Below, in pieces: positions 12,302 through 62,900 of a stretch of DNA of 64,000 bases. The position numbers were made by a program, and so were the translations under genes. Position 1 is the stretch's first letter. Every line of letters starts with the position of its first letter. Source of the DNA: Eledone cirrhosa (lineage: Eukaryota); NCBI GenBank assembly GCA_964016885.1, contig OZ024741.1, positions 148,924,001-148,988,000 of the forward strand. Direction: 5' to 3'. The notes beneath the pieces were generated by a model, which was not told where the DNA came from, made no database searches, and worked only from the letters and a program-made list of their open reading frames with translations.

Positions 12302-12344
12302 GTCAAAGTTCTTTCGTCACACATTCTGTGACCTCTTCAGTGAC
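12302..12344 (-). ncRNA. Minimal type I hammerhead (PLE-B pLTR)
   Basis: Reverse complement gtca-CTGAAGA-gGTCACAgaatgTGTGAC-GAAA-gaacTT-tgac. Confidence 0.85.
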
Positions 12345-12513
12345 TGGAATTCTTTTCTTTGTTTTTGTGCCTCTCCTTTGTTCTGTCCTACGCCATCTTC
12401 ACACACATATAAACAAACACATGCTCAAACTAAGCATACAACACACACACAAAAACAAGATGGCGTAGGACAGAACAAAGGAGAGGCACAAAAAACAAAG
12501 AAAAGAATCCCTA

Positions 12514-12556
12514 GTCACTGAAGAGGTCACAGAATGTGTGACGAAAGAACTTTGAC
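12514..12556 (+). ncRNA. Minimal type I hammerhead (PLE-B pLTR)
   Basis: gtca-CTGAAGA-ggtcacagaatgtgtgac-GAAA-gaactt-tgac. Confidence 0.85.
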
Positions 12557-12762
12557 AATATATAAACAACCATCTGGTTGTGGAACCAACCAACCAATCG
12601 GAAATTTATAAATTCCTAAATTTATAAATTTATTGTAATAAATTGAAGTGAAAGCAACTGGTGCATGTGTTTCTTATTGGCAACATGACCCTCCCAAAGT
12701 ATAACAATATCGGTTTCAACACACGTTTTCAGATAAAGAATCTTTCTAAACAAATTCAGAAA

Positions 12763-15729: not shown

Positions 15730-16327
15730 TCTCTCTCTATATAAATATATACCTACATACAAAGTGGTTGGCAATAGGAAAGTCATCCAGCTGCAGAAAC
15801 CATGCTATACAAAGAGTTGTCAGGCCTCTTCAGTTATGTCAAGGACATGATAATCTTCCTAGTGTCGATGTCATGATAAAATACACCCATTCTGTAATAT
15901 AGAAATATGGTAATGAAAGGATTAAATAATGACAATGATGATGATACAGGTGTGAACATTCCTTAGATAAGCTCTTAATCCTTAGGCTTCTTGTAGTGTA
16001 ACACAGAATAGACAAGTGAATCTATTTCAGGTATGTTCACTGAAGCAGAAGAACATTGCTACTGTTACTACTACACCTCACCCTAATATGGTCTACTGAT
16101 CGAATCAAAACTTCAGCCATTCCCACTTTTACAGCTAATGAACAATAACTAATACATCTCCTTTTTGATCCCCACCCACCATTATGTTACATTTGAATGT
16201 TAAGACTCACCAATAACCTAAATAACAGGCTTTCAAGTTGGTCACCTATAATCAAAATCATATGCATGCTACTGTACGTCTGTATACATATATGTATGTA
16301 CGTATACATACATACTTACATTTATAT

Positions 16328-16372
<45 letters not shown>

Positions 16373-16408
16373 TATAAGAACAAAAGATGGTTAAAGGAGT
16401 TCCATGTA

Positions 16409-16475
16409 TTTTATTATGCGCATTTCAAAAACAAATATCATCTTGCAATAATATTTGTGTTTTCATCAGATAAAA
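16409..16475 (-). ncRNA. Type I hammerhead with palindromic stem III (Naiad A)
   Basis: Reverse complement ttttat-CTGATGA-long AT-rich stem II-GAAA-TGCGCA-TA-ataaaa. Confidence 0.9.
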
Positions 16476-17142
16476 CAGGAGGACATGATATGAAGGCTAA
16501 AAAACACTTGTGGGTAGTTCAGTTTTAAATCAACATATGAGAAGTAGTTTTAGATTGTGTGATATTGGGAAAAATATTTTATTTAGAGGGGGGGGGAGTG
16601 GAAAGGATGAAAAAAAGGGGAGGAGATGAGAGTGAAGGTGGAGAGGGAGGAGTATAGTGAGGAAGGATGAGATAGGAGGAGAGATGGGTGATAGAGAGAG
16701 AGAGATAGTTTTTATAACTGAGAAAGATATATTGTTTTACATTAGAGAGGTTGAAAACCGTTGGAAGATAATGTATAAATTAAAAGAATTTGAAAATTAA
16801 CGAAGAGAAAAAGAGAAAAATATGTGCGAAGAAAGAGAAGGAGTTAATATGTATTGAGAATAATGAGTTAGATGATAGGGAGAAAAGAATAATGAATTGC
16901 GGATGAATATTCTAACGTTAAAAAAAAAAAAGAAAAAAATTGTATATGTTTACGAAGGATTTTTATAAGGTGATATAGAGTAAGAATGTGTTCTATTACG
17001 TAATAATTGATTCTATGTTAGGCAAGAGTGAGAAAAGGTACAGATTAGGGGTTAGATATTAGAAGAGAAGAAAAGGAAGTGATAAATATGGGTGATGTAG
17101 AAAGAGTAAAACAGGTATTATAGAAATTTGAAAATTAACGAA

Positions 17143-17272
17143 GAGAAAAATAATGTAAAGTTAAGGTTTGTATATTGAAGGATTTGAGAAAAATAATGTA
17201 AAGTTAAGGTTTGTATATTGAAGGATTTGAGAAAAATAATGTAAAGTTAAGGTTTGTATATTGAAGGATTTG
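17143..17272. repeat. 43-bp tandem repeat x3 in the PLE 3' UTR
   Basis: taatgtaaag recurs at 17151, 17194 and 17237. Confidence 0.95.
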
Positions 17273-17561
17273 ATAATATGTGTGAAGAAAAAGAAAATGT
17301 TAATATGTATTGAGAATAATGAGTTAGATGATAGGGAGAAAAGAATAATGAATTGAGGATGAATAATCTAGCGTAAAAAAAAAATGTATATGTTTACGAA
17401 GGATTTTACAAGGTGATATAGAGTAAGAGTAATGAGTAAACAAGTATTATAGAATGTATAATAACCTTTGAAATAAGGTGGAAAGATGGGTATATTTTTA
17501 AAAGAAGTGTATATATATGTGCCTTTGAGAAAAAGATTCTAAATTGATAAAGAATTGAATA

Positions 17562-19580
17562 TTAGCTGTATACTTTGTGAAATGTTTTATGGAATTTATG
17601 CAAGCAGATAGAAAACAAGTCAGTGCGTCTATTTATTATAGAATCTAGATTAGAGATAATGGTAAATTTTTCATTTAGACAGAGATTGCAGATTTTAGAT
17701 AGAGAACTGTTCAAGTATGGAGACGCAGAAGAAAACTTCCTCCAAAAGATGCTATATTTAATGTTTTTGTCTTTCAAGGACCATATGAGTTCTGAGAGAG
17801 CCGTGTTGGTTCTTTTAAGTTTGTATTTAAAAGATGAATGATGGTTATAAAGACGAGCTTTAAAAGAGGTGGAAGTGGAGCCAAAATAGGTGAAGGAATT
17901 GGTGTCAGTTATAACTTTACATTCGTAAATTAAGTTTTTATCAAGACAATGATTGTTGAGAGGACATTTATTTTTAATAGGGCAATTGCAATTGCAATTA
18001 GAGAGATTATTAATGACTGACCTAGTGTTATCTATAGAAGGAATTAGATTGGAGAAGTTATTTGCGATAGGAATAATAGTTTCTTGATTTAGAGTGGGAT
18101 TATGAACATTTAGCGAAGTTGTGTTTGACGTTGTATTTGGGTTTGTAGAAATTAGCCTAGGGTTTACAATGACGTCGGGAGTACTATTACTATTATTATG
18201 AAATTCAGTGTTGGAAGGAAGAGATTTAGTATTTAGTATTTTATTGTTGTGTTTAGAGATAATGTTGGAAATGTTGGAGGATGTAGAATAAGAAAATTTT
18301 ATGGTGTGTTTGTTAAATATTTTACTATAGATATGTGAGGGAGGGAAGCATTTATTTAAGGCACTAAAGAATAATTTAGGAATATTGTTATTAATAGAGA
18401 TGGAGAAAGGAGCATTATACCAGATTATGTTTTTGTATCTAGGTCTTTTGTTAAAGTTATTGGAATGATCATGATTAATTATTCTACTGTAAGTTCTTCT
18501 AGAATTTGTTTCTTTACTATATTTGATTTTATCAGGATAGCCGGCTTTAGAAAGCGCGTTATTATAGTAATTGGCGTTAGCATCAAAGATGTTTTTATTA
18601 GAAGATAGGTTAGATATTCTTTTTCCAATATTACTAACTATAGCATTCTTGATATTAGTAGGATGGTTAGATTTAAAGTTAACGTAATTTAGGTTCTCAT
18701 TGTTTTTATGGTAAGGGTAATATAGGCCAGTGTTAAGGTTAAGAGATACATCCAAGAAATTAGCTAGTTTGATACTGTTATCAAATTCAATTTTTAGGTT
18801 ATGTTGGTTAAAGAGATTACGTATATTGTTCTTAATAATATTAAGGTTAACTATATTGCAATTTAAGATAGTAAAGAGTCCATCGTCACGATAAATTCCA
18901 CCACGAAGTTGAGGAATTTTCCGACTCAAAGAGTTCAAAATAAAGATACCAATTAAATCAGTCAATTGGGATGAATCGGATGCTCCCATTGTGATGTCGA
19001 AGTTGTTAGAGGTATCGGCTCTGGTCCAATATTCGTTGTTGAACTCTAGGATGGTTTTACGTGCGGTGAGAATGATGTGAAGTTCATCTGTGGTGATGTC
19101 AGAATATTTAAGTGCGAAAGATAGAGCATTATTGAGAAGTGAAGGCGAAATGGAGGAATAGTAGCTGGCAATATCAAATTGAACAAATTTTAGTTTGTTT
19201 TTATTATTCAATTTGTTGAACCAGCTAATCACTTCAGAAGTACCAAACCATAAATTTAGGTTCAAAGAAGAGCAATTAGAACGAACCTGTGGGATAATTC
19301 TATCCAAGATGGCTTTACTAACAACCCCCAGATCAGATATAGAGGGGGCGATTAATCTAACAGGTAGTTCAGTGCGAAAATTGTTTTTGTGATCCTTGAG
19401 ATTTATCCTCGGAGTTCTTGGGAGGAATGGTTCTGTCTTTTTATCAATGCCAAGTTTTGACATAATCTCAGAGGCTTCAAGGTTTATGTATTCTAAATTT
19501 TCATGGTTGGTTTTACGATATTTTTTCCTAAGTTCCTTTAGGATAAGGTTGTTATAATTATCCTTGGAAATACCATATAA
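17562..19580 (-). CDS. PLE reverse transcriptase + GIY-YIG endonuclease (N-terminally truncated, otherwise uninterrupted)
   Basis: [48 protein letters not shown] knuckle, [20 protein letters not shown]. The first about 25 aa of the 697-aa ORF come from the inverted tail. Confidence 0.92.
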
Positions 19581-19690
19581 CCATCTTTTGTTCTTATATA
19601 TTATGTATACTCCAGTCCCACAAACTGTAGAGTGCTTCTTATCCGATATCTGCATTGCTTTATTGTACTACAATAAAACTCACCTCCTAC

Positions 19691-19865
19691 ATATATATAC
19701 ATATATATATATATATGTGTATATATATATATATACACATATATATATATATATGTGTATATATATATATATATATATGTATGTATATATATATATCTGT
19801 ATATATATATATATATGTATGTATATATATATATATGTGTATATATATATATATATATATGTATG

Positions 19866-19914
<49 letters not shown>

Positions 19915-19931
19915 GTATATATATATGTATG

Positions 19932-19998
<67 letters not shown>

Positions 19999-20003
19999 GT
20001 ATG

Positions 20004-20075
<72 letters not shown>

Positions 20076-20081
20076 TGTATG

Positions 20082-20146
<65 letters not shown>

Positions 20147-20151
20147 GTATG

Positions 20152-20182
<31 letters not shown>

Positions 20183-20199
20183 ATGTATATATATATATG

Positions 20200-20283
<84 letters not shown>
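19691..20283. repeat. (TA)n tract with TATG interruptions
   Basis: Direct reading; bracketed by inverted Naiad A tails. Confidence 0.95.
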
Positions 20284-20284
<1 letters not shown>

Positions 20285-21514: not shown

Positions 21515-22968
21515 ATTTCGTTTCTGAATTTGTTTAGCAAGATTCTTTATCTGAAATCGTGTGTTGAAACCGATATTGTTATACTTTGGGAGGGTCATGT
21601 TGCCAATAAGAAACACACGCACCAGTTGCTTTCACTTCAATTTATTATAATAAATTTATAATAAATTTATAAATTTCTGGTTGGTTGGCATCTGATCCAC
21701 CGAAACTCGGCCGTTTCGGACCATACCAAAATCAACATACTGACTGCGGATTTGGTACGGGTGATGAGAAACGTGTCCCGCATGTGCAACCCTGAAGAAC
21801 TAGAGAGACACATACAACACTTCATCCACCGTATGCAGTTCTCTGGCTACAATCAGAGAGATAAAATCAGAGTGTATAGAGGAGCCAGAACCAAATGGGA
21901 AAAAATGGTAAATAATGACATAAATGGGACCTGCCCCTTGTATAGGAGCAAATTTAGGAATAGAATAGAAAGAACTAGGAACAAGGCTAATAGAATAAAC
22001 TCATGGTATGATAGCAATAAATACCAGAGTGTAATGTTCATGGATACAACCCCTCGAGGTGAATTAGCTTACAAATTTAGAAGGGCCCTAAATAAACATA
22101 AACTCAATATTAAGATAGTAGAAAGACCAGGTACCTCCATAAAAACACTTATTAGCAAGACATACCCTTTTGCAAAGACCCTCATGTATAGATAAGAAAT
22201 GTATAACCTGTAAAATAAGCCCCCATATTAACTGTAAAACTAGAAATGTAATGTATAGCATAAGATGTACTGAAGGACAATGTAGAGACAAAAATATAGT
22301 GTACATAGGTGAGACAGCTCGTAGTGTAGGGGAACGGATAAACGAACACTGGCGAGACCTTCAAGATAGTAAAGAATCATCTGTACTCTAGCAACATGCT
22401 AAAATAGAACACAAGGGTAAATTAGAGAACATAGAAATAAAAATAGAATCTACACACAGAAAAGACGCAATGTTTAGACAAATTACAGAGGCAATAAACA
22501 TAAAAGAATTACAACCAAAATTAAATAGAAAATATGAGTGGAACAGCAACATCACAACTTACAATTAAGGACAAAATGAAAACACACACACACATAGAAC
22601 AAACAACCAACCAGTAACATGTAAATAAACAAATAAATAAATGAACATAAACACACACAGACACCCAGATGTGGCGCATGCGCAGACTGAGCACACAACA
22701 CACACACAGAAACAAAATGGCGTAGGACAGAACAAAGGAGAGGCACAGAAACAAAGAAAGGAATCCACAGTCACTGAAGAGGTCACAGAGTGTGTGACGA
22801 AAGAACTATGACAATATATAAACAACTATCTGGTTGCGGAACCAACCAACCAACCAGAAATTTATAAATTTATTATAAATTTATTATAAATTTATTATAA
22901 TAAATTGAAGTGAAAGTAACTGGTGCGTGTGTTTCTTATTGGCAACATGACCCTCCCAAAGTATAACA
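21515..22968 (+). mobile_element. Penelope-like element B (non-Naiad; Neptune/Nematis-like) 3' fragment with inverted pLTR
   Basis: RT thumb (LVRVMRNVS, MQFSGY), CxxC linker, VMYSIRC..YIGETARSVGERINEH GIY-YIG with a frameshift and a stop. pLTR with HHR at 22770-22812; inverted tail at 21515-21688. Confidence 0.88.
22770..22812 (+). ncRNA. Minimal type I hammerhead (PLE-B pLTR)
   Basis: gtca-CTGAAGA-ggtcacagagtgtgtgac-GAAA-gaacTA-tgac. Confidence 0.87.
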
Positions 22969-23680
<712 letters not shown>

Positions 23681-39642: not shown

Positions 39643-41595
39643 AAAAGTTCAGAGAGCTTATACCACTATTAGCTGCTAAAGGGTTCTCCCTAAAAATGAA
39701 AGGCAGGTTGTACGATGCCTGCATACGAACAGCAATGCTGCATGGCAGTGAGACCTGGGCATTGTGTGCAGAGGATATACGCAGACTAGAGAGGAATGAA
39801 GAGGAATGAAGCTCTGGCCGTGTAGGCAACACAGTAAAAACCTCCCAGACCCACACTGTAAATGTGGTTGGTGTTAGGAAGGGCATCCAACTGTAGAAAA
39901 CCTGCCAGTCAGTCCTATGCGAGCAAGACAACCACTCTTGCCTCAAGTGGGACTACCCCCGTCCAAACCCATGCAAGCGTGGAACACGGACGTTAAACGT
40001 TGATGATGATGATGATGATATGTATATATATATGTATATATATATATATATATATATAGATTTTACATGTGGCCGGTGTTCTGGTGCAATAAGTAGCAGC
40101 AAGTGCCCACAAAATACTAGCTCTTTCAACTGCGCAGAGGGTTCTATAGAAATAGTGGACAGCTTCCGTTACCTGGGTGACACAATCAGCAGTGGGGGAA
40201 GGTGCTCTGAAAGTACTGTAGCTAGAGTCAGAACTGGGTGGAAAAAGTTCAGAGAGCTCATACCACTATTAGCTGCTAAAGGGTTCTCCCTTAAAATGAA
40301 AAGCAGGTTGTACGATGCCTGCATACGAACAGCAATGTTGCACGGCAGTGAGACCTGGGCATTGTGTGCAGAGGATATACGCAGACTGGAGAGGAACGAA
40401 GCTTGCATGCTCCGCTGGATGTGTAACAGTAATATACGTGAACGGCAAAGCATAAACGAACTAAGGAAAAAATTAGAGATAAGAGGGATCAGATGTTGTT
40501 TACTCGAGAGAAGGCTACGTTGGTATGGACACGTGATGCGCATGAAAGTCGATAGCTGTATAACAAAGTGCAGGGCAATAAAGATAGACGGTAGTCACGG
40601 AATAGGCAGACCTAGAAAAACCTGGGACGAGCTGATAAACTCCGACATCACACACTTACACCTCTCCAAGACAATGTCACTGGACCGAGACCTTTGGCGG
40701 TACTCAGTAACAGAGAAGACCCGCCTTACCTAAATATATAGTAAAACCTACTCCAGCCAGTAGGCATCTCTAACAAAATACACCCCGTCCCACCACCACC
40801 ATCCCCACCCCATCCACACCACCCCGTTCTATGTAAAGTTATGTTGGTGCCGCGCCATCGAGGCCGAAACAAATGAGATCGTGTAGGTGTCACGACAAAA
40901 AAACACACAGTCCACGCTGTAATCTGGCCGTGTAGGCAACACAGTAAAAACCTCCCAGACCCACACTGTAAATGTGGTTGGTGTTAGGAAGGGCATCCAA
41001 CTGTAGAAAACCTGCCAGTCAGTCCTATGCGAGCAAGACAACCACTCTTGCCTCAAGTGGGACTACCCCCGTCCAAACCCATGCAAGCGTGGAACACGGA
41101 CGTTAAACGTTGATGATGATGATGATGATATGTATATATATATGTATATATATATATATATATATAGAGATTTTACATGTGGCCGGTGTTCTGGGGCAAT
41201 AAGTAGCAGCAAGTGCCCACAAAATACTAGCTCTTTCAACTGCGCAGAGGGTTCTATAGAAATAGTGGACAGCTTCCGTTACCTGGGTGACACAATCAGC
41301 AGTGGGGGAGGGTGCTCTGAAAGTACTGTAGCTAGAGTCAGAACTGGGTGGAAAAAGTTCAGAGAGCTCATACCACTATTAGCCGCTAAAGGGTTCTCCC
41401 TTAAAATGAAAAGCAGGTTGTACGATGCCTGCATACGAACAGCAATGTTGCACGGCAGTGAGACCTGGGCATTGTGTGCAGAGGATATACGCAGACTGGA
41501 GAGGTACGAAGCTTGCATGCTCCGCTGGATGTGTAATAGTAATATACGTGAACGGTAAAGCATAAACGAACTAAGGAAAAAATTAGAAATAAGAG
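39643..41595 (+). mobile_element. Tandem RTE 3' fragments (1110-bp period)
   Basis: ORFs at 40020 and 41130 start identically after the same short TA spacer. Confidence 0.92.
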
Positions 41596-41605
41596 TATAT
41601 ATAAG

Positions 41606-42283
41606 AGTCTGCGTATATCCTCTGCACACAATGCCCAGGTCTCACTGCCATGCAACATTGCTGTTCGTATGCAGGCATCGTACAACCTGCCTTTCATTTT
41701 TAGGGAGAACCCTTTAGCGGCTAATAGTGGTATAAGCTCTGTGAACTTTTTCCATCCAGTTCTGACTCTAGCTACTGTACTTTCAGAGCACCCTCCCCCA
41801 CTGCTGATTTTGTCACCCTGGTAACGGAAGCTGTCCACTATTTCTATAGAACCCTCTGCGCAGTTGAAAGAGCTAGTATCTTGTGGGCACTTGCTGCTAC
41901 TTATTGCACCAGAGCACCGGCCACATTTAAAATCTATGTTCTTAGTTAGCTTACCTGTGATCCCACTACATCTTTTATGCACCCATACTTTGCATTTGGG
42001 ACATAAAATGGAGTTTCTCCCTACGCCTTTCCTACACACAGAGCATGGCCACTTCCCGGAAGGGACCGCCGCCTTATTTTCTTTCTTACAAACTAGAACT
42101 TTAGTCTTAGCCAGGTTAATTTTAAGGCCTTTTGATTCTAGGCCGTGCTTCCATGTTTGGAATTTCTTCTCTAGCTCGGCTAGGTCGTCTAGGTCGTCTG
42201 CGTATAGGAGTTCCCATAGGCAACCGGTCTTGAACTCCTCTGTTATAGCCTGAAGGGCAATAATAAATAGTATGGGGCTGAGC
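41606..42283 (-). mobile_element. Inverted RTE RT fragment (LSPILF..YADD..PHD)
   Basis: ORF 41401-42297. Confidence 0.92.
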
Positions 42284-42309
42284 AGCCTAATTTGCATATT
42301 GAGTGAGTT

Positions 42310-42600
42310 AACTCACTCAATATGCAAATTAGGCTGCTCAGCCGTTAATTTTCATAAGGAAAGTATATACTTTCGAACGTTCAACTATCTGGCAGATGGC
42401 TAAACGGTGCTGATGATAGCTAACAAGCTTGAAACTAGTACATCGTTCCTGTGTCAGTGTTGAACAAAAAGGTGACGTGGTTGCCTTAACACCGTATGGC
42501 ATAAATTCGGGCTGTTCAGTTTGTTGACAAACGAACAAAGCGGCGTTATAATAAGCGTCCGCTAAACTGATGCGTGCATATATGTATGTGTACCTGTATG

Positions 42601-42682
<82 letters not shown>

Positions 42683-43156
42683 TGCTACTGTACGTCTGTA
42701 TACATATATGTATGTACGTATACATACATACTTATATTTAAGTAAGTGCCATACTAAGAGTGAGAAATGAAATTTCGTTTTCATTTTTTTCAACTTATCG
42801 TTTTCGGTATGCCTGACCGATTTAACTCACTCAATATGCAAATTAGGCTGCTCAGCCGTTAATTTTCATAAGGAAAGTATATACTTTCGAACGTTCAACT
42901 ATCTGGCAGATGGGTAAACGGTGCTGATGATAGCTTGTTAGCTATCATCAGCACCGTATACCCATCTGCCAGATAGTTGAACGTTCGAAAGTATATACTT
43001 TCCTTATGAAAATTAACGGCTGAGCAGCCCAATTTGCATATTGAGTGAGTTAAATCGGTCAGGCATACCGAAAACGATAGGTTGAAATAAAATGAAAACG
43101 AAATTTCATTTCTCACTCTTAGTATGGCACTTACTTAAATGTAAGTATGTATGTAT
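42310..43156 (+). mobile_element. Retrozyme-like tandem unit (about 514 bp) ending in a fold-back
   Basis: HHR at 42404 and a second, broken HHR at 42918; 42720-42936 is mirrored by 42940-43156. Confidence 0.65.
42404..42446 (+). ncRNA. Minimal type I hammerhead, palindromic stem III
   Basis: acggtg-CTGATGA-tAGCTaacaAGCTt-GAAA-CTAG-TA-catcgt. Confidence 0.92.
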
Positions 43157-43761
43157 ACGTGAACGACAAAGCATAAATGAATTGAGAGAGAGACTGAGCA
43201 TAAGAGGAATCAAATGCTGTGTGTAGGAGAGGTGGTTGCGCTGGTATGGACATGTGATGCGTATGAAGGATGACAGCTGCATAAAAAGGTGCAGAGCACT
43301 AGAAGTCGATGGAAACCGCGGAGCGGGGAGATCCAAGAAGACCTGGGATGAGGTGATAAAAACTGACCTTACCCAATTACACCTCTCAAAGGCGATTACA
43401 CACGACCATGACCTCTGGCGTCACGCAGTAATACAGAGTACCCGACCCCCCATGGGTACAAGCTGAAGCATATAGACAATATGCCCCACACCCTCCCACT
43501 GCAAAGTGATCGTGGAGATGCCACAGCAAAAAAGCACCCAGCCCACACTGTAAAGTGGACGTGTAGGCGCCATGGAAAAAAGCACCCAGCACTCACTGTA
43601 AATGAGGTTGGTGTTAGGAAGGGCATCCAGCTGTAGAAATCAAGCCAAAATCAGTTCCTGTATGAGCAAGGCATGGTCAGCCGACCAGACACTGCCCACA
43701 ACAGGACAACCCGTCTAACCCATGCTAGCATGGAAGAATGGACGTAAAACGGTGATGATGA
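43155..43761 (+). mobile_element. RTE LINE 3' end (subfamily that donates the SINE tail)
   Basis: [17 protein letters not shown]; 3' UTR shared with SINE 10905; (GAT)n tail. Confidence 0.9.
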
Positions 43762-43790
43762 TATATATATATATATATACACACACATAC

Positions 43791-43853
<63 letters not shown>

Positions 43854-43965
43854 AAAGGCAATCAGAAATAACAAAGCAAACAACACAGTACAATGAAGAA
43901 ATGTATTATTAGTTTTACGCTTCATATAATAGGAAAACAGTCTTACATATGTACATGTATGTGTG

Positions 43966-44009
<44 letters not shown>

Positions 44010-44013
<4 letters not shown>

Positions 44014-44551
44014 CGTTTCTGAATTTGTTTAGCAAGATTCTTTATCTGAAATCGTGTGTTGAAACCGATATTGTTATACTTTGGGAGGGTCATGTTGCCA
44101 ATAAGAAACACACGCACCAGTTGCTTTCACTTCAATTTATTATATATTTATAAATTTATAAATTTACAAATCTACAAACTTATAAATTTCTGGTTGGTTG
44201 GTTGGTTCCACAACCAGATAGTTGTTTATATATAGTCATAGTCCTTTCGTCACACACTCTGTGACCTCTTCAGTGACTGGGGATTCAAGATAATAAAGAA
44301 TCATCTGTACTCTACCAACATGCTAAGATAGAACACAAGGATAAATTAGAAGAGGTCACAGAGTGTGTGACGAAAGGACTATGACTATATATAAACAACT
44401 ATCTGGTTGTGGAACCAACCAACCAACCAGAAATTTATAAGTTTGTAGATTTGTAAATTTATAAATTTATAAATATATAATAAATTGAAGTGAAAGCAAC
44501 TGGTGCGTGTGTTTCTTATTGGCAACATGACCCTCCCAAAGTATAACAATA
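44010..44551. mobile_element. PLE-B fold-back: two inverted pLTRs joined by 70 bp of GIY-YIG coding sequence
   Basis: HHR on the minus strand at 44234-44278 and a clipped HHR on + at about 44349-44387; spacer 44284-44350 matches 22360-22428. Confidence 0.88.
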
Positions 44552-44585
44552 TATATATATATATGTATATGTAGATATTTATATA

Positions 44586-45708
44586 TCATCATCATCATAT
44601 GTTCATTCTTCCACACTAACATGGGTTAGATGGGTTGTCCTGTTGTGGGCAGTGTCTGGTTGGCTGACCTTGTCTTGCTCATACAGAAACTGATTTTTGC
44701 TTGATTTTTAGAGCTGGATGTCCTTCCTAACACCAACCTCATTTACAGTGAGTGCTGGGTGCTTTTTGTCATGACACCTCCGCGACCACTTTGCAGTGGG
44801 AGGGGATGGGGCATATTGTCTATATGCTTCAGCTTTGGCTTGTACCCGTGGGAAGTTGGGTCTTGAGAGGTGCAATTGGGCAAGGTCAGCTTTTATCATC
44901 TCATCCCAGGTCTTCTTGGGTTTCCCCACTCCAAGGCTCCCATCGACTTTTCGTGCGCTGCACCTTTTTATGCAGCTGTCATCCTTTATACGCATCACAT
45001 GTCTATACCAACACAACCGCCTCTCCTGCATACATAATTTGATTCCTTTTATGCTCAGTCTCTCTCTCAATTTGTTTATGCTTTGCCGTTTGTGTATATT
45101 ACTTTTACACATCCATCGGAGCATGCAAGCTTTGTTTCTTTCTAATCTATGCAAGTCTTCTACATAAAGCGCCCAGATCTCACTACCATGTAACATTGCT
45201 GTTCGTATGCACGCATCATACAGTCTGCCTTTCATTTTGAGGGAAAAGCCTTTTGCAGCTAGCAGAGGTAGTAGTTCCCTGAACTTCTTCCATCCCGTTC
45301 TTACTCTTGTTACTGTACTTTCAGAACACCCACCTCCGCTGCTAATTTGGTCACCTAGGAAGCAGAAGCTGCCTACTGTTTCTACTGAGCCCTCCCAGCG
45401 TTTGGTAGTGCTTATTCCTGTGGTTGTTTGCTGCTTACTGTCCCAGTGCAGCTGCTACATGTAAAGCCTACATTCCTAACTAAGCTTCCTGAGATACCAC
45501 TACATCTCTTGTGTAGTTTGCATTTGGGGCAGAGGATGGAATTCCTACCTACATCATTCCCAATTACTGAGCATGGCCATTTCCCTGAGGGGATCTGGGT
45601 TCTGTTTTCTGTCTACTTACGAGGACCTTAGTTTTTGTCAGGTTGACTTTGAGACCCCTTCTTTCTCGTCCCTGCTTCCATGTTTGGAATTTTTTCTTTA
45701 GTTCCACC

Positions 45709-45709
<1 letters not shown>
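44586..45709 (-). mobile_element. RTE LINE 3' part (decayed)
   Basis: ORF 44708-45235 plus PHD remnants; (CAT)n tail. Confidence 0.9.
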
Positions 45710-45741
<32 letters not shown>

Positions 45742-45744
45742 ATT

Positions 45745-45952
45745 AAGGGCCCCCATTGGTTACTAAAGACTGATTTTGCACCTAGACAGTTTCCATCTGA
45801 GGCACAAGCTTGAGAAAGTTTTACCGAAAACCAGTAGTTGCCCATGCATACCAGTCTTCCCTCTCCACACCACTGATGTTGTCCAAAGGAAAGGAAATGG
45901 CCGATACAGCTTGATACAAGTGACGTCACAACTCATTTCTATAGCTGAGTAA
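45745..45952 (-). mobile_element. Probable SINE body/tail fragment
   Basis: Ends in ctcatttctatagctgagtaa, the core shared with the SINEs at 7943 and 10905, but has a different tail. Confidence 0.55.
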
Positions 45953-46251
45953 TTACAGATAATCACTTAATTATTGAAAAATGCTATAAGCATAAAAATA
46001 AATCATCTTTTTTTATAATTTTATTCAATAAAGCCACCTTTAGCTTCAATAACTGCTTCTATGCAATATCAAAATCGTCTACATGCTCAAAAATGGTCTT
46101 GGTTCATATTGGACATTACTTTGACAATGGTGGCTCATGCAGAAGGCAAGAAGCATGCCCCTGCATCAACAGTGTAACATACCCGCAGTAGTCTATGAGG
46201 CTCATGTTACATCTACTCGACCAAACCAAAAGCAGGAGATCAAAACTTATG

Positions 46252-48385
46252 TGGCAATAAAGATAGACGGTAGTCACGTAATAGGCAGACCTAGAAAAAC
46301 ATGGGATGAGCTGATAAACTCCGACCTCACACACTTACACCTCTCCAAGACAATGTCACTGGACCGAGACCTTTGGCGGTACTCAGTAACAGAGAAGACC
46401 CGCCTTACCTAAATATATAGTAAAACCTACTCCAGCCAGTAGGCATCTCTAACAAAATACACCCCGTCCCACCACCACCATCCCCACCCCATCCACACCA
46501 CCCCGTTCTATGTAAAGTTATGTTGGTGCCGCGCCATCGAGGCCGAAACAAATGAGATCGTGTAGGTGTCACGACAAAAAAACACACAGTCCACGCTGTA
46601 ATCTGGCCGTGTAGGCAACACAGTAAAAACCTCCCAGACCCACACTGTAAATGTGGTTGGTGTTAGGAAGGGCATCCAACTGTAGAAAACCTGCCAGTCA
46701 GTCCTATGCGAGCAAGACAACCACTCTTGCCTCAAGTGGGACTACCCCCGTCCAAACCCATGCAAGCGTGGAACACGGACGTTAAACGTTGATGATGATG
46801 ATGATGATATGTATATATATATGTATATATATATATATATATATATAGATTTTACATGTGGCCGGTGTTCTGGGGCAATAAGTAGCAGCAAGTGCCCACA
46901 AAATACTAGCTCTTTCAACTGCGCAGAGGGTTCTATAGAAATAGTGGACAGCTTCCGTTACCTGGGTGACACAATCAGCAGTGGGGGAGGGTGCTCTGAA
47001 AGTACTGTAGCTAGAGTCAGAACTGGGTGGAAAAAGTTCAGAGAGCTCATACCACTATTAGCCGCTAAAGGGTTCTCCCTTAAAATGAAAAGCAGGTTGT
47101 ACGATGCCTGCATACGAACAGCAATGTTGCACGGCAGTGAGACCTGGGCATTGTGTGCAGAGGATATACGCAGACTGGAGAGGAACGAAGCTTGCATGCT
47201 CCGCTGGATGTGTAACAGTAATATACGTGAACGGCAAAGCATAAACGAACTAAGGAAAAAATTAGAGATAAGAGGGATCAGATGTTGTTTACTCGAGAGA
47301 AGGCTACGTTGGTATGGACACGTGATGCGCATGAAAGTCGATAGCTGTATAACAAAGTGCAGGGCAATAAAGATAGACGGTAGTCACGGAATAGGCAGAC
47401 CTAGAAAAACCTGGGACGAGCTGATAAACTCCGACATCACACACTTACACCTCTCCAAGACAATGTCACTGGACCGAGACCTTTGGCGGTACTCAGTAAC
47501 AGAGAAGACCCGCCTTACCTAAATATATAGTAAAACCTACTCCAGCCAGTAGGCATCTCTAACAAAATACACCCCGTCCCACCACCACCATCCCCACCCC
47601 ATCCACACCACCCCGTTCTATGTAAAGTTATGTTGGTGCCGCGCCATCGAGGCCGAAACAAATGAGATCGTGTAGGTGTCACGACAAAAAAACACACAGT
47701 CCACGCTGTAATCTGGCCGTGTAGGCAACACAGTAAAAACCTCCCAGACCCACACTGTAAATGTGGTTGGTGTTAGGAAGGGCATCCAACTGTAGAAAAC
47801 CTGCCAGTCAGTCCTATGCGAGCAAGACAACCACTCTTGCCTCAAGTGGGACTACCCCCGTCCAAACCCATGCAAGCGTGGAACACGGACGTTAAACGTT
47901 GATGATGATGATGATGATATGTATATATATATGTATATATATATATATATATATATAGATTTTACATGTGGCCGGTGTTCTGGGGCAATAAGTAGCAGCA
48001 AGTGCCCACAAAATACTAGCTCTTTCAACTGCGCAGAGGGTTCTATAGAAATAGTGGACAGCTTCCGTTACCTGGGTGACACAATCAGCAGTGGGGGAGG
48101 GTGCTCTGAAAGTACTGTAGCTAGAGTCAGAACTGGGTGGAAAAAGTTCAGAGAGCTCATACCACTATTAGCCGCTAAAGGGTTCTCCCTTAAAATGAAA
48201 AGCAGGTTGTACGATGCCTGCATACGAACAGCAATGTTGCACGGCAGTGAGACCTGGGCATTGTGTGCAGAGGATATACGCAGACTGGAGAGGTACGAAG
48301 CTTGCATGCTCCGCTGGATGTGTAATAGTAATATACGTGAACGGTAAAGCATAAACGAACTAAGGAAAAAATTAGAAATAAGAGT
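46252..48385 (+). mobile_element. Tandem RTE 3' fragments (1110-bp period), duplicate of the 39.8-41.6 kb array
   Basis: ORFs at 46809 and 47919 are offset by exactly 6789 from 40020 and 41130. Confidence 0.92.
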
Positions 48386-48394
48386 ATATATAAG

Positions 48395-49072
48395 AGTCTG
48401 CGTATATCCTCTGCACACAATGCCCAGGTCTCACTGCCATGCAACATTGCTGTTCGTATGCAGGCATCGTACAACCTGCCTTTCATTTTTAGGGAGAACC
48501 CTTTAGCGGCTAATAGTGGTATAAGCTCTGTGAACTTTTTCCATCCAGTTCTGACTCTAGCTACTGTACTTTCAGAGCACCCTCCCCCACTGCTGATTTT
48601 GTCACCCTGGTAACGGAAGCTGTCCACTATTTCTATAGAACCCTCTGCGCAGTTGAAAGAGCTAGTATCTTGTGAGCACTTGCTGCTACTTATTGCACCA
48701 GAGCACCGGCCACATTTAAAATCTATGTTCTTAGTTAGCTTACCTGTGATCCCACTACATCTTTTATGCACCCATACTTTGCATTTGGGACATAAAATGG
48801 AGTTTCTCCCTACGCCTTTCCTACACACAGAGCATGGCCACTTCCCGGAAGGGACCGCCGCCTTATTTTCTTTCTTACAAACTAGAACTTTAGTCTTAGC
48901 CAGGTTAATTTTAAGGCCTTTTGATTCTAGGCCGTGCTTCCATGTTTGGAATTTCTTCTCTAGCTCGGCTAGGTCGTCTAGGTCGTCTGCGTATAGGAGT
49001 TCCCATAGGCAACCGGTCTTGAACTCCTCTGTTATAGCCTGAAGGGCAATAATAAATAGTATGGGGCTGAGC
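48395..49072 (-). mobile_element. Inverted RTE RT fragment (duplicate of 41606-42283)
   Basis: ORF 48190-49086, one amino-acid difference seen. Confidence 0.92.
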
Positions 49073-49192
49073 AGCCTAATTTGCATATTGAGTGAGTTAA
49101 CTCACTCAATATGCAAATTAGGCTGCTCAGCCGTTAATTTTCATAAGGAAAGTATATACTTTCGAACGTTCAACTATCTGGCAGATGGCTAA

Positions 49193-49235
49193 ACGGTGCT
49201 GATGATAGCTAACAAGCTTGAAACTAGTACATCGT
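49193..49235 (+). ncRNA. Minimal type I hammerhead
   Basis: Identical to 42404-42446. Confidence 0.92.
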
Positions 49236-49389
49236 TCCTGTGTCAGTGTTGAACAAAAAGGTGACGTGGTTGCCTTAACACCGTATGGCATAAATTCGGG
49301 CTGTTCAGTTTGTTGACAAACGAACAAAGCGGCGTTATAATAAGCGTCCGCTAAACTGATGCGTGCATATATGTATGTGTACCTGTATG

Positions 49390-49455
<66 letters not shown>

Positions 49456-49690
49456 TGCTACTGTACGTCTGTATACATATATGTATGTACGTATACATAC
49501 ATACTTATATTTAAGTAAGTGCCATACTAAGAGTGAGAAATGAAATTTCGTTTTCATTTTTTTCAACTTATCGTTTTCGGTATGCCTGACCGATTTAACT
49601 CACTCAATATGCAAATTAGGCTGCTCAGCCGTTAATTTTCATAAGGAAAGTATATACTTTCGAACGTTCAACTATCTGGCAGATGGGTAA

Positions 49691-49733
49691 ACGGTGCTGA
49701 TGATAGCTAACAAGCTTGAAACTAGTACATCGT
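49691..49733 (+). ncRNA. Minimal type I hammerhead
   Basis: Identical to 42404-42446. Confidence 0.92.
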
Positions 49734-49887
49734 TCCTGTGTCAGTGTTGAACAAAAAGGTGATGTGGTTGCCTTAACACCGTATGGCATAAATTCGGGCT
49801 GTTCAGTTTGTTGACAAACGAACAAAGCGGCGTTATAATAAGCGTCCGCTAAACTGATGCGTGCATATATGTATGTGTACCTGTATG

Positions 49888-49967
<80 letters not shown>

Positions 49968-50057
49968 TGCTACTGTACGTCTGTATACATATATGTATGT
50001 ACGTATACATACATACTTACATTTATATATATATATATATTTAGATATATATATATA

Positions 50058-50551
50058 AGTAAAACCTACTAGAGTCAGTAGGCATCTCTAACAAAATACA
50101 CCCCGTCCCACCACCCCCACCCCATCCACACCGCCCCTTTCAATGTAAAGTTATGTTGGTGCCACAAAATCCAGGCCGAAACAAATGAGATCGTGTAGGT
50201 GTCATAACAAAAAAAAACACACAGTCCACGCTGTAATGTGACCGTGTAGGCAACACGGTAAAAACCTCCCAGTCCCACACTGTAAATGTGGTTGGTGTTA
50301 GGAAGGGCATCCAGCTGTAGAAAACCTGCCAGACAGTCCACGCTGTAATGTGGCCGTGTAGGCAACACGGTAAAAACCTCCCAGCCCCACACTGTAAATG
50401 TGGTTGGTGTTAGGAAGGGCATCCAACTGTAGAAAACCCGCCAGACAGTCCTATGCGAGCAAGACAACCACTCTTGCCTCAAGTGGGAAAACTCCCGTCC
50501 AAACCCATGCAAGCATGGAACACGGACGTTAAACGATGATGATGATGATGA
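50058..50551 (+). mobile_element. RTE LINE 3' UTR
   Basis: Reverse complement of the 20654/23682-type tail; (GAT)n. Confidence 0.9.
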
Positions 50552-55700: not shown

Positions 55701-56744
55701 TGGGTAACCCCTGCTTGCAAAGGTAGACGTAAGATCTTCTTTTATATCTTTTTATCGCTTCCTCTATATTTCCTTATTCCCCCCATCCATTCCTAGTCCT
55801 TCCACCCCAGTCCTCTGTCTTTGTCGTCGTCCTTTTAACTTTCTCGCCGACCCGAGGCAGCCCCTCGGTCCTTTGTAGCCTCAGTACCCCCACCCCCTTC
55901 CCCTATTCTATGATAGAATTGGCCGACTCCGCTTTTTATAGCAGATGTGATAGACCCCGGATACTTGCTTTCTTATCCGATGGCTGCCCCTTTTCCGTGC
56001 TTTCTACATTTCTTAGTGGTATCTTTGCTTTAATTTCTCGTATATCAGTATTTATTTTTGGGGGGGGGGGGGGATTCTGAATTAATTTTCCGTATCAAAT
56101 TTTTCATATACTTCGTACGAGCATTTATGTAGTTTGCACTAGAATTTTTGTATCGTAGCGGCACCCTTAGAGATAGTATTAGTATTCTTTTTCGGGATTC
56201 TGAATTATTATTGCGTATTAGTTTATTTTTTGCACTGGCTGGTTGCTGGCCTTGTGCCTAGGGTAGAAACAATTATATCGTATTAGTCTCGGGACTCTGA
56301 ATTATTATTTCGTGGTAGTGTCTTTAGTATTTTGGCCCCCACTTGTTGACCCGTCACCGTAAGATATACTCGGTTGATTACTACTACCTCTTAAAAGGGT
56401 CTCATTATAATTCCGTCGCACCTAGTAAACTTTTCTATAGTCTAGCAGTACCAGTGAGAGACTTGATGGCTGTCGTTAGGGAATAGTAACCAGAAATTGT
56501 TTTTTTTTATATTTAATTGTTTTTTTTAACAATCTCGGTATTCTTCTATATATTTACCCCATATTGTTTTACTTATTGTTTCTACTTCCTACCCCTCCCC
56601 CTCTCTAGTATACTTGCTTGACCTCCTGCCCTGCGGATACAACAAACAAATATTTTTATAACTGATATAAAGCACTCAACAAATTATTGGAGTAAAAATA
56701 CGATATATTAACAAATGGAAACTATATTTATAAAACCATATTTA

Positions 56745-56805
56745 TTTCATTATACATATTTCAAGGACACCAAGTTAAATTATGGTGTGCTTTCATCAGA
56801 TAAAA
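56745..56805 (-). ncRNA. Type I hammerhead (Naiad D family)
   Basis: Reverse complement ttttat-CTGATGA-aagcACACCAtaatttaactTGGTGTcctt-GAAA-tatgta-TA-atgaaa. Confidence 0.88.
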
Positions 56806-58347
56806 TATAATATAGACCAGTTTTATAAATAAATATTGACATACCCTTAAAGAATGCGACCATTTCTGTTGGAAGCTCCCGGATAGTGGGGTTATAAATT
56901 TATTAATACTATTATGTCAATTAATTTCGGATATTTTAAAATCATAGTAGATTTAAATAAGTCGTTTGGTTATGGAGAAAGAGAGAAAGAGAAAAAAAAG
57001 AGATATAAAAAAGAGAAAAAAGAGCAAACTCTAAGAGGAAAATAAGAAAAGGAGAGAGAGAAAAGACGAGGAGAGAGAGAAAAGAGAGAAACGAAAAAAA
57101 GAAAAGAGAAAGCGAAAGCTCTAAGTGATAGGTTGTTGTATTATCTTAATTTTTGAGATGAAGTGAAAGAATAAATAAATATTTAATGGATGAATAGAGA
57201 AGTGTAAATAAGCGTGAATGGAAAATACATACACAATAGGAGAATTTTAACCATTGTTTAAATATGATTAAATGTTTAGTTTATCTTTTAAATTATTGAG
57301 ATCTATACATTAAAAATTGAGATCTATATATTATTAAGACTATATATTATTAAAAAATCCATATATTATTAAAAGAATATATTCATATATATACATACGC
57401 ACACACAGATATATATACATATATACATATAAATATATATACACATACCTATATATAGATACATATACATACAAACAAACAATAAAGGATTTTTTAATTA
57501 AAGATATAGGAATTTTCATAAACTTATAGATTTTCAGAGAAAAACTTAGAAAAAACAGAAAAAATCATTTCTATGTAATATCGAAACAGCGTGAAGGAAA
57601 TTACGTTATTTACTTATATTAAATGTTACAAATGTTAAGATAGTAAAGGAAATATTAGGTTATACAAACCTTATGTTATTATACAAATTTGTTTAATATA
57701 AGTTTTATATCCAATAAATCCACCTGTTATGTAGTTGTGACTGTTATTATATAAGTTTGTTTATCCTTATAAACGAGTGCACCCGAATTGTATGCATATA
57801 TATATATATACACAGAATCCTCACATAGATACACATAGATGTACTTACACATACAGGTATATATGCATCACACATATATATATACATTCATATACACACA
57901 TATATATATACATACATATACACACATATATATATATATATATATACATACATACATATATACACACGCATATATATATATATAGAGAGAGATATATATA
58001 TATATAAATACAGTACATAATATAATTGAAGTATATAATATATATAATATAAAATAAAATAAAAATGAAATAAAAATGAATTATATTACGATTTGGAAAT
58101 ATAATTATAAGCAATATAACTTTAAATCAATATAACCTTAACAAATATAATTTTAAAAAATTATAGAATATTTCAAGTTATAATTTTAAAATTAGAATAT
58201 GTTTAATATATTCAGTATAAAAATTTAAATGTTCTATATAATATCTAGTTCTCAGTATGTTTAACTTAATTTTATAGCCATAAGAAAAAGAAAGAAAAAC
58301 TTTCAAAAGAGAAATTTTCAAAAATAGGAGAAACTTTCAAATAAAAT

Positions 58348-60962: not shown

Positions 60963-62507
<1,545 letters not shown>

Positions 62508-62900
62508 GCAAAAGTTTTATTTAAAATTGTTGGGTTACAACAAGTAAATATTTTATAACTGATATAAAGCACTCGACAAGTTTTTGGAGTAGATATACGA
62601 TATTAAACAAATGGAAACTATATTTATAAAACCATATTTATTTCATTATACATATTTCAGGGATACCATATTAAAAATATGGCATGCCTTCGTCAGATAA
62701 AATACAATATATAAACAGTTTTATAAATAATTTTGACGTAACTTATTATAAGCGACCATTATATTTGGAAGCTGTCTGGATAGTGATTTGTTTATAATTA
62801 TTTAGTTATAGTGTTAAGCACAGTTAGAAAAAAGACGGAGAGAAAGAAATATATATATAAATAGATAGGAGGAAGTGAAAAAGAAGTGAAAAAGAAGTGA
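62508..62900 (-). mobile_element. Solo pLTR related to Naiad D with hammerhead at 62641-62702
   Basis: Homologous to 56640-56890; reverse complement ttttat-CTGACGA-aggcatgccata..tatggtatccct-GAAA-tatgta-TA-atgaaa. Confidence 0.87.

Follow-up and report, generated by a model that had tools for sequence, protein, structure and literature searches.

The window considered here, a stretch of 64,000 nt from the genome of Eledone cirrhosa, contains a tandem repeat unit that runs from one hammerhead ribozyme (HHR) to the next, accompanied by truncated relatives of the unit and by a Penelope-like element (PLE). The relevant features are, in window coordinates:

16264..16324, plus strand: 5'-truncated family copy of 61 nt that ends at the S site; one TA tract is common to this copy and a Penelope end
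16377..19690, minus strand: PLE1, a 5'-truncated Hydra-type PLE, with an open frame at 17562-19667 and its own HHR at 16469
42276..42935, plus strand: locally duplicated copy with one whole HHR (core 42410) and a second HHR cut at helix II
42932..43160, minus strand: inverted piece of a different copy of the family (about 97.5% alike), with the junction at the helix II palindrome
49065..49098, minus strand: inverted 5' arm of 34 nt, which meets an RTE-like LINE reverse-transcriptase fragment at a microhomology of 7 nt
49192..49236, plus strand: HHR 1, canonical metazoan type I, with core 49199-49205 and GAAA at 49220-49223
49192-49198/49230-49236 and 49206-49219, plus strand: helix I and helix II of HHR 1, whose helix III is palindromic
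49230..49727, plus strand: predicted monomer of 498 nt from cleavage site to cleavage site, by HHR core spacing and hammerhead numbering
49360..49493, plus strand: predicted long hairpin, from folds computed for the monomers of the window, L076 and the sister family and by counts of G.U versus A.C
49507..49513, plus strand: short (S) end site, a putative reverse-transcription start, by arm ends and junctions
49514..49571, plus strand: tail of about 58 nt reaching the long (L) end site at 49571, with a T7 run at 49557-49563, by arm ends
49608..49656, plus strand: sequences resembling upstream elements of U6, namely a 12-mer at 49608 and a TATA at 49650, with counterparts at 49110 and 49152; a possible internal promoter
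49690..49734, plus strand: HHR 2, identical to HHR 1
49728..50025, plus strand: incomplete second monomer, again with an internal TA tract, which stops at the S site, by sequence
50026..50058, no strand assigned: flanking TA target tract, by sequence

The LINE fragment next to the inverted 5' arm is presumably RTE-like, judged by its translation. The surrounding region (39813-49708) consists of nested local duplications and inversions of such fragments, many of which start or end at TA tracts. Yet another dispersed family, the core of which is hammerhead-like, is present at 12330-12720, 22700-22970 and 44070-44550, as inverted pairs adjoining TA tracts.

The two type I HHRs have their cores at 49199 and 49697, i.e., 498 bp apart; the core is intact in the sequence as read, and hammerhead numbering predicts cleavage after GUA at 49229 and 49727. 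Because helix I is 7 bp long and continues into a bulged extension, helix II has 4 bp resting on a U.U pair, and helix III is limited to 1-2 bp with the palindromic loop ACTAGT (ACUAGU in RNA), the ribozyme falls outside the minimal class of PLEs, which is described as being without helix III, with a helix II of 7-8 bp and a helix I of 4-5 bp; its letters correspond instead to the canonical metazoan form, which works as a dimer (PMC4209133). The first-pass annotation of this DNA had reported identical minimal HHRs 498 bp apart, with a palindromic stem III suited to dimeric cleavage. Identity, distance and palindrome hold, and the ribozyme is of the dimer-acting type, but it is canonical rather than minimal. 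With the Rfam model HH9 the match is weak (17.9 bits at E 0.043, compared to a gathering score of 52), and the 150 matches listed by an Rfam scan of the whole window are miRNA models below their cut-offs, mostly on TA tracts.

As had also been annotated, the unit contains an internal (TA)n, with a pure run at 49404-49451, and is devoid of an ORF: read as a circle, its longest ATG frame on the sense strand has 51 codons, mostly from the TA tract, through which the antisense frame of 123 codons runs as well. The second unit ends at 50025, short of a third HHR. The copy at 42.4 kb is a local duplicate, since 39813-42935 corresponds to 46602-49708 at 99.3%, the units differing just by 16 nt of TA, and hence it provides no independent support. 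The HHR-to-HHR unit of 514 bp previously assigned to it contains a single whole HHR; the other (at 42924) is cut short at helix II (42935) and passes there into the inverted copy.

A dispersed family with two fixed ends

Exact matches of the 40-nt HHR number 10,122 in the 3.0-Gb genome, compared to none for its reversed control, so that its occurrence is not due to chance. A sister family accounts for 5,150 exact HHR copies with a unit of about 420-430 nt, compared to 465-500 nt in the main family. In helix I, a G.U pair of one family is swapped to U.G in the other, i.e., the change is compensatory. Individual copies were compared in a sample of 50 loci in position order, formed by the first 100 HHR matches on one contig (C1). 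The sample covers 70 Mb of that contig, requires an exact HHR and was chosen to avoid look-alikes of the window copy. Conservation of the HHR across these loci was discarded as evidence, because selection by exact HHR match makes it circular.

The TA segment is reached by 141 HHR-side halves, and 136 of these run on into the second half of the unit. One of the remaining five (L077) runs 22 nt further and then fuses to a Penelope frame, one (L106) resumes beyond a nested insertion, and at most three (L072, L079, L083) end inside the TA tract. Dispersed copies thus keep both halves around the internal TA. This bears on the idea that a short Penelope end was duplicated in tandem together with its flank, for which the HHR part should elsewhere end at the TA tract beside unrelated flanks. 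Local duplication does account for the 42.4-kb copy, but with 10,122 HHR copies, 136/141 intact halves, and copies on many contigs that carry both halves together between unrelated flanks, local duplication has practically no chance of explaining the family and is refuted. Both 5' truncation and inversion are seen among the copies.

Arms range from part of one unit to more than 10 units. At least two HHR units lie on one arm in 22 of the 50 loci, up to 16 occur in the fetched part of L110, and long satellite-like arrays are present at L040-L048. Units differ by 0.6% within an arm, by 1.2% between the arms of a locus, and by 5.0% between loci. Among the 24 two-arm loci compared, which include loci holding separate insertions, the arms show no difference in nine and less than 0.4% in three more; within-arm differences reach at least 1.5% in 8 of the 22 multi-unit loci. 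There are many different haplotypes, each of which forms near-identical arrays, on both inverted arms. Such uniformity per haplotype points to a bottleneck of one unit, a requirement that would best be met by a circle.

Some sister-family arrays have a different period: exact HHRs are spaced by 842 bp, double the length of the unit, at 19.315 Mb and 49.585 Mb of C1 (L174-L176), so that, by spacing, two variants appear to alternate, owing either to a dimeric template or to a higher-order repeat. In run X4, one of four contig runs of unrecorded kind that bear on neither expression nor circles, sister-family letters dominate at window positions 49701 and 49711 (5317 of 5527 at 49711), while run X1 has about half. 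Run X5 contains one contig of a differently labelled organism that covers 49521-49804 (285 nt, four other letters) at a depth of 5.6, which is low for a repeat.

The ends of the arms are strongly restricted. Of 89 arms in the 50 loci, 36 end at S (49507-49513) and 44 at L (about 49571), i.e., 80 ends fall on two sites about 58 nt apart, both downstream of the internal TA; five arms are the cases at the TA segment described above, and four end elsewhere or at the edge of the fetched sequence. Nearly all S and L ends pass directly into a TA tract, with a TA-like overlap of about 1-4 nt, and such tracts would mask any target-site duplication. Head-to-head arrangement was found for 33 pairs of arms, of which 25 could be classed at both ends (8/33 unclassed), and all 25 combine one S with one L end (p 6e-8 if compared to a coin toss). 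In 10/25 pairs it is the S arm that is longer; neither arm is thus a fold-back copy of the other, and such an origin was rejected for the second arm. The sister family has the same ends, also in TA.

The pairing of a short with a long end is the "tail" signature of Penelope elements, whose insertions are described as carrying such a tail at only one end (PMC8557442). A Penelope protein has been shown in vitro to cut both strands and to extend them; it starts at two sites within the RNA that delimit the tail, without homology to the cut DNA (PMC11167929). Because that protein starts at two tail-bounding RNA sites, S and L may be taken as two start sites of reverse transcription.

Candidate helper and internal TA tract

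A putative source of the enzyme, the young element PLE1, lies in the same window. All 144 scored genome matches of the PLE1 protein are 97-100% alike, with many copies at 98-100%, some within open frames of 821 codons. Compared by eye with PMC8557442, the 821-codon frame contains RWT, DKT, CNCRIKNKC, CNLC and CLH. The Hydra clade is characterized by an RWK-like motif, DKT, a CxCx5C linker, a C-terminal GIY-YIG domain flanked by CxxC and CxH, and an HHR (PMC8557442), and by its motifs PLE1 appears to share these features. Pfam returned no match for three Penelope frames. Insertions of PLE1 have two ends like those of the HHR unit, lying in TA. Moreover, two of the 50 loci hold TA-free fusions between the two elements, both obeying the short-plus-long rule: the long end of PLE1 is joined to the short end of the unit in L074, and its short end to the long end of the unit in L077. 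Such fusions could also stem from later deletion. The earlier proposal of a TA-targeting Penelope-like helper is thus borne out by the ends, the Hydra motifs and the PLE1 fusions, and the mover of the unit is likely an enzyme of Hydra type. The helper may not be PLE1 alone, because in L068 and L089 the long end of the unit is joined to the short end of a further family. A fusion with a PLE2-like end in L107 looks like long plus long, and L069 is ambiguous. Placed side by side, the tails of the unit and PLE1 have only a short ACT..GAGT motif in common, and no clear sequence match to the PLE1 terminal repeat is apparent in this comparison. An autonomous element with the HHR or the tail of the unit was not encountered among the sequences compared.

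PLE2, another HHR-bearing Penelope-like end, occurs in the window at 56400-56950 and 62500-62800 (minus strand) as well as in L067, L070, L074, L089 and L101. It forms inverted pairs whose ends fall on two fixed sites separated by about 63 nt, and since PLE2 pairs also have two fixed ends, the short-plus-long rule looks general in this genome. A TA-rich tract of 600 nt (19691-20284) has been entered by the PLE1 long end from either side, i.e., one tract was used twice.

The internal (TA)n of the unit is predicted to be folded. In the 134-nt hairpin, a basal stem of 23 bp and a 12-nt bulge would carry the TA repeat as a self-paired upper stem. The linear 498-nt monomer folds with a z of -11 that comes in part from the TA tract itself; the mean predicted unpaired probability of the tract is 0.09 in the window copy and 0.20 in a short-tract copy. 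A fold of the same kind is predicted for the sister monomer. Basal-stem mismatches found in at least two loci are G.U rather than A.C in 5 vs 1 cases in the main family and 9 vs 3 in the sister, and those seen in a single locus of the main family are split 7 vs 7; these counts weakly suggest that the sense RNA is the strand that folds. Pure TA runs have a median of 23 nt (range 9-105, 134 segments) in the main family and of 12 nt in the sister (64 units from partly overlapping fetches), and a TA-rich segment is retained in both. Interruptions of the internal tract comprise 53 G vs 3 C, largely inherited and hence not independent, and flanking tracts are split 17 vs 13. Scars of A-to-G editing were considered and dismissed, as the unique part shows no bias (7 A>G vs 7 T>C among 34 locus-wide changes).

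The first-pass annotation had assigned a more active role to the tract: its (UA)n could pair with (TA)n targets and seed new landing pads, a feed-forward explanation of the TA-rich landscape; in such a model, pairing would aim or prime insertion. The two start sites do follow the tract at distances of about 55 and 120 nt, its TA-rich segment persists in both families, nearly all ends are in TA, and insertions are nested inside it. However, the ends sit at fixed sites downstream, with no more than 3/141 halves ending in the tract, and aiming by pairing is unlikely because the tract is predicted to be paired and the sister, with its median run of 12 nt, ends in TA likewise. PLE1 has no such tract between HHR and tail, yet ends in TA, and insertion into (TA)n is a trait of the Hydra clade that its describers tie to the protein linker (PMC8557442). 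Furthermore, the family holds just 177 of the 11,309 TA-run bases of the window (1.6%), and 10,122 units with 23-44 nt each extrapolate to less than 0.02% of the genome, too little for a feed-forward explanation of the TA-rich landscape. As a whole, this model is therefore highly improbable. The seeding of landing pads survives in kind and is small in size: nested insertions were found in 4 of 135 internal TA segments (L061, L091, L097, L106), and one (L081) in the unique part, which is much longer and was screened less fully. The internal (TA)n is likely a folded passenger and an occasional landing pad, with targeting done by the protein.

Routes of insertion

Taken together, the unit is most plausibly a high-copy HHR repeat that is transcribed, cut, probably circularised, and copied into (TA)n by a Hydra-type Penelope enzyme from two sites, a reading to which we assign a probability of roughly 0.7. 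Transcription would start from a U6-like internal promoter or occur by read-through. The tandem ribozymes would cut as a dimer to release monomers of 465-500 nt, which a host ligase would close, as expected from known HHRs. The Penelope endonuclease would cut both strands of a TA tract, whereupon one DNA end would prime at S and the other at L through an overlap of only about 1-4 nt; the end pattern is directly visible in the loci, and the enzyme is the putative part. The two arms lie head to head, are mostly of one haplotype and vary in length as described above, and multi-unit arms would result from going round a circle. As the copies show, each unit brings along a TA run, which varies in length between copies, presumably by slippage, and receives later insertions.

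For the promoter, there is a lead only. All three U6 loci compared carry the 12-mer of 49608, with 0-1 mismatch, at positions -77 to -79. This 12-mer is present in 10 of 5000 shuffles of the unit, and it is followed by the TATA after 42 nt instead of the 46-48 nt in U6, i.e., the spacing is 4-6 nt shorter. A U6-like promoter would place the start near 49680, immediately before the HHR. Local alignments between the unit and DNA upstream of U6 were mostly no better than shuffles, and U2 upstream DNA gave no match to the unit. A T run is expected to stop polymerase III, which the T7 of the window copy would do; the T run of the tail is interrupted in 35 of 46 scored loci and uninterrupted in this copy. 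The U2 and U6 genes themselves (L186-L188, L198-L200) have unlike upstream elements, those of U6 including an octamer-like 12-mer at about -78.

The main competing explanation retains the helper and the start sites but replaces the circle by a linear, non-autonomous Penelope template: an uncut read-through concatemer would be copied, the HHR would be inherited and dispensable, and arrays would grow by recombination. Cleavage by the HHR is indeed not required for insertion in vitro, where HHR mutants were without effect (PMC11167929), and the two-ends rule does not by itself imply a circle, because PLE1, the RNA of which is presumably linear, has the same ends. A role for recombination is in keeping with the satellite-like arrays of L040-L048, with the sister-family matches spaced at twice the unit length, and with the 8/22 heterogeneous arrays, which would fit a single circle only if they are old; in addition, a preprint (10.64898/2026.07.22.740005) favors local tandem amplification from Penelope ends. 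However, the many haplotypes that each form near-identical arrays on both arms call for a one-unit bottleneck, copying of linear arrays can only shorten them, and the compensatory swap in helix I between the sister families speaks against this route as well. A linear template is therefore unlikely, and the circular route is preferred. A bolder version of the latter is less likely than not: an RNA circle that promotes itself would be copied by a dimeric Hydra-type Penelope from either end of a TA tract that has been cut, with one subunit at each site, each turn leaving an expanding TA run as a new target for the same and for other elements.

Relation to known elements and significance

By its sequence, the unit matches the features of metazoan non-LTR retrozymes, in that whole type I HHR units are in tandem, non-coding and dispersed. 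Those retrozymes are described as non-coding tandem units with one type I HHR each, arranged as dimers to long arrays, in thousands of copies and with a highly self-paired fold (PMC7229834; preprint 10.64898/2026.07.22.740005), and both sources propose Penelope as the helper. Two axolotl HHRs among them share the weak palindromic helix III and the U.U at the base of helix II. In contrast, published units measure 150-450 bp and their RNAs about 170-400 nt, whereas the Eledone unit is longer (465-500 nt); the word microsatellite is absent from the available text of PMC7229834, whereas the Eledone unit has an internal (TA)n hairpin; and two opposed arms in (TA)n, fixed short and long ends, and direct Penelope fusions set it further apart. 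RNA circles have been demonstrated for metazoan retrozymes, while the Eledone unit is known here from the genome. Titles and abstract openings of the papers listed in literature searches yielded no retrozyme with an internal microsatellite, although the supplements of PMC7229834, PMC8557442 and the preprint may bear on this point. Judged from these sources, unit size, internal microsatellite hairpin, and two-armed (TA)n insertion appear to be new relative to known retrozymes.

The ends have parallels in tailed Penelope elements: in Poseidon PAc of Anolis (PMC11167929) and in the Hydra clade (PMC8557442), two fixed ends bound an optional tail, the partner is inverted and 5'-truncated, priming proceeds without long homology, a type I HHR is present, and, for Hydra, (TA)n is the target. 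Their tail is 30-40 nt instead of about 58 nt, and the Eledone unit differs in having no ORF, arms of up to many units, and a short-plus-long pairing that is strict in the sample. Chlamys elements, e.g., MRC1 (PMC8557442), are likewise non-autonomous Penelope derivatives, multicopy and head to tail, of a clade that favors microsatellites. They are green-algal, however, mostly without canonical HHRs, favor (CA)n or (C)n, and have a 3' end like that of their helper, in all of which the Eledone unit is different.

For animal retrozymes, entry into the genome by a Penelope helper and a circular template has been proposed, but not shown in the published work consulted. The Eledone family would offer a young and very abundant substrate, two mapped putative start sites, and a candidate helper with open 821-codon frames and fusions, and with these the published in vitro system becomes a means of testing the insertion step. 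For Penelope enzymes, the strict pairing of short and long ends constrains how the two strands are handled. Moreover, the internal TA illustrates how a retroelement can seed microsatellites of which others then make use, albeit on a scale far too small for the TA content of the genome. If the reading of a self-promoting circle were true, the family would represent a retroelement that itself generates the kind of site into which it inserts.
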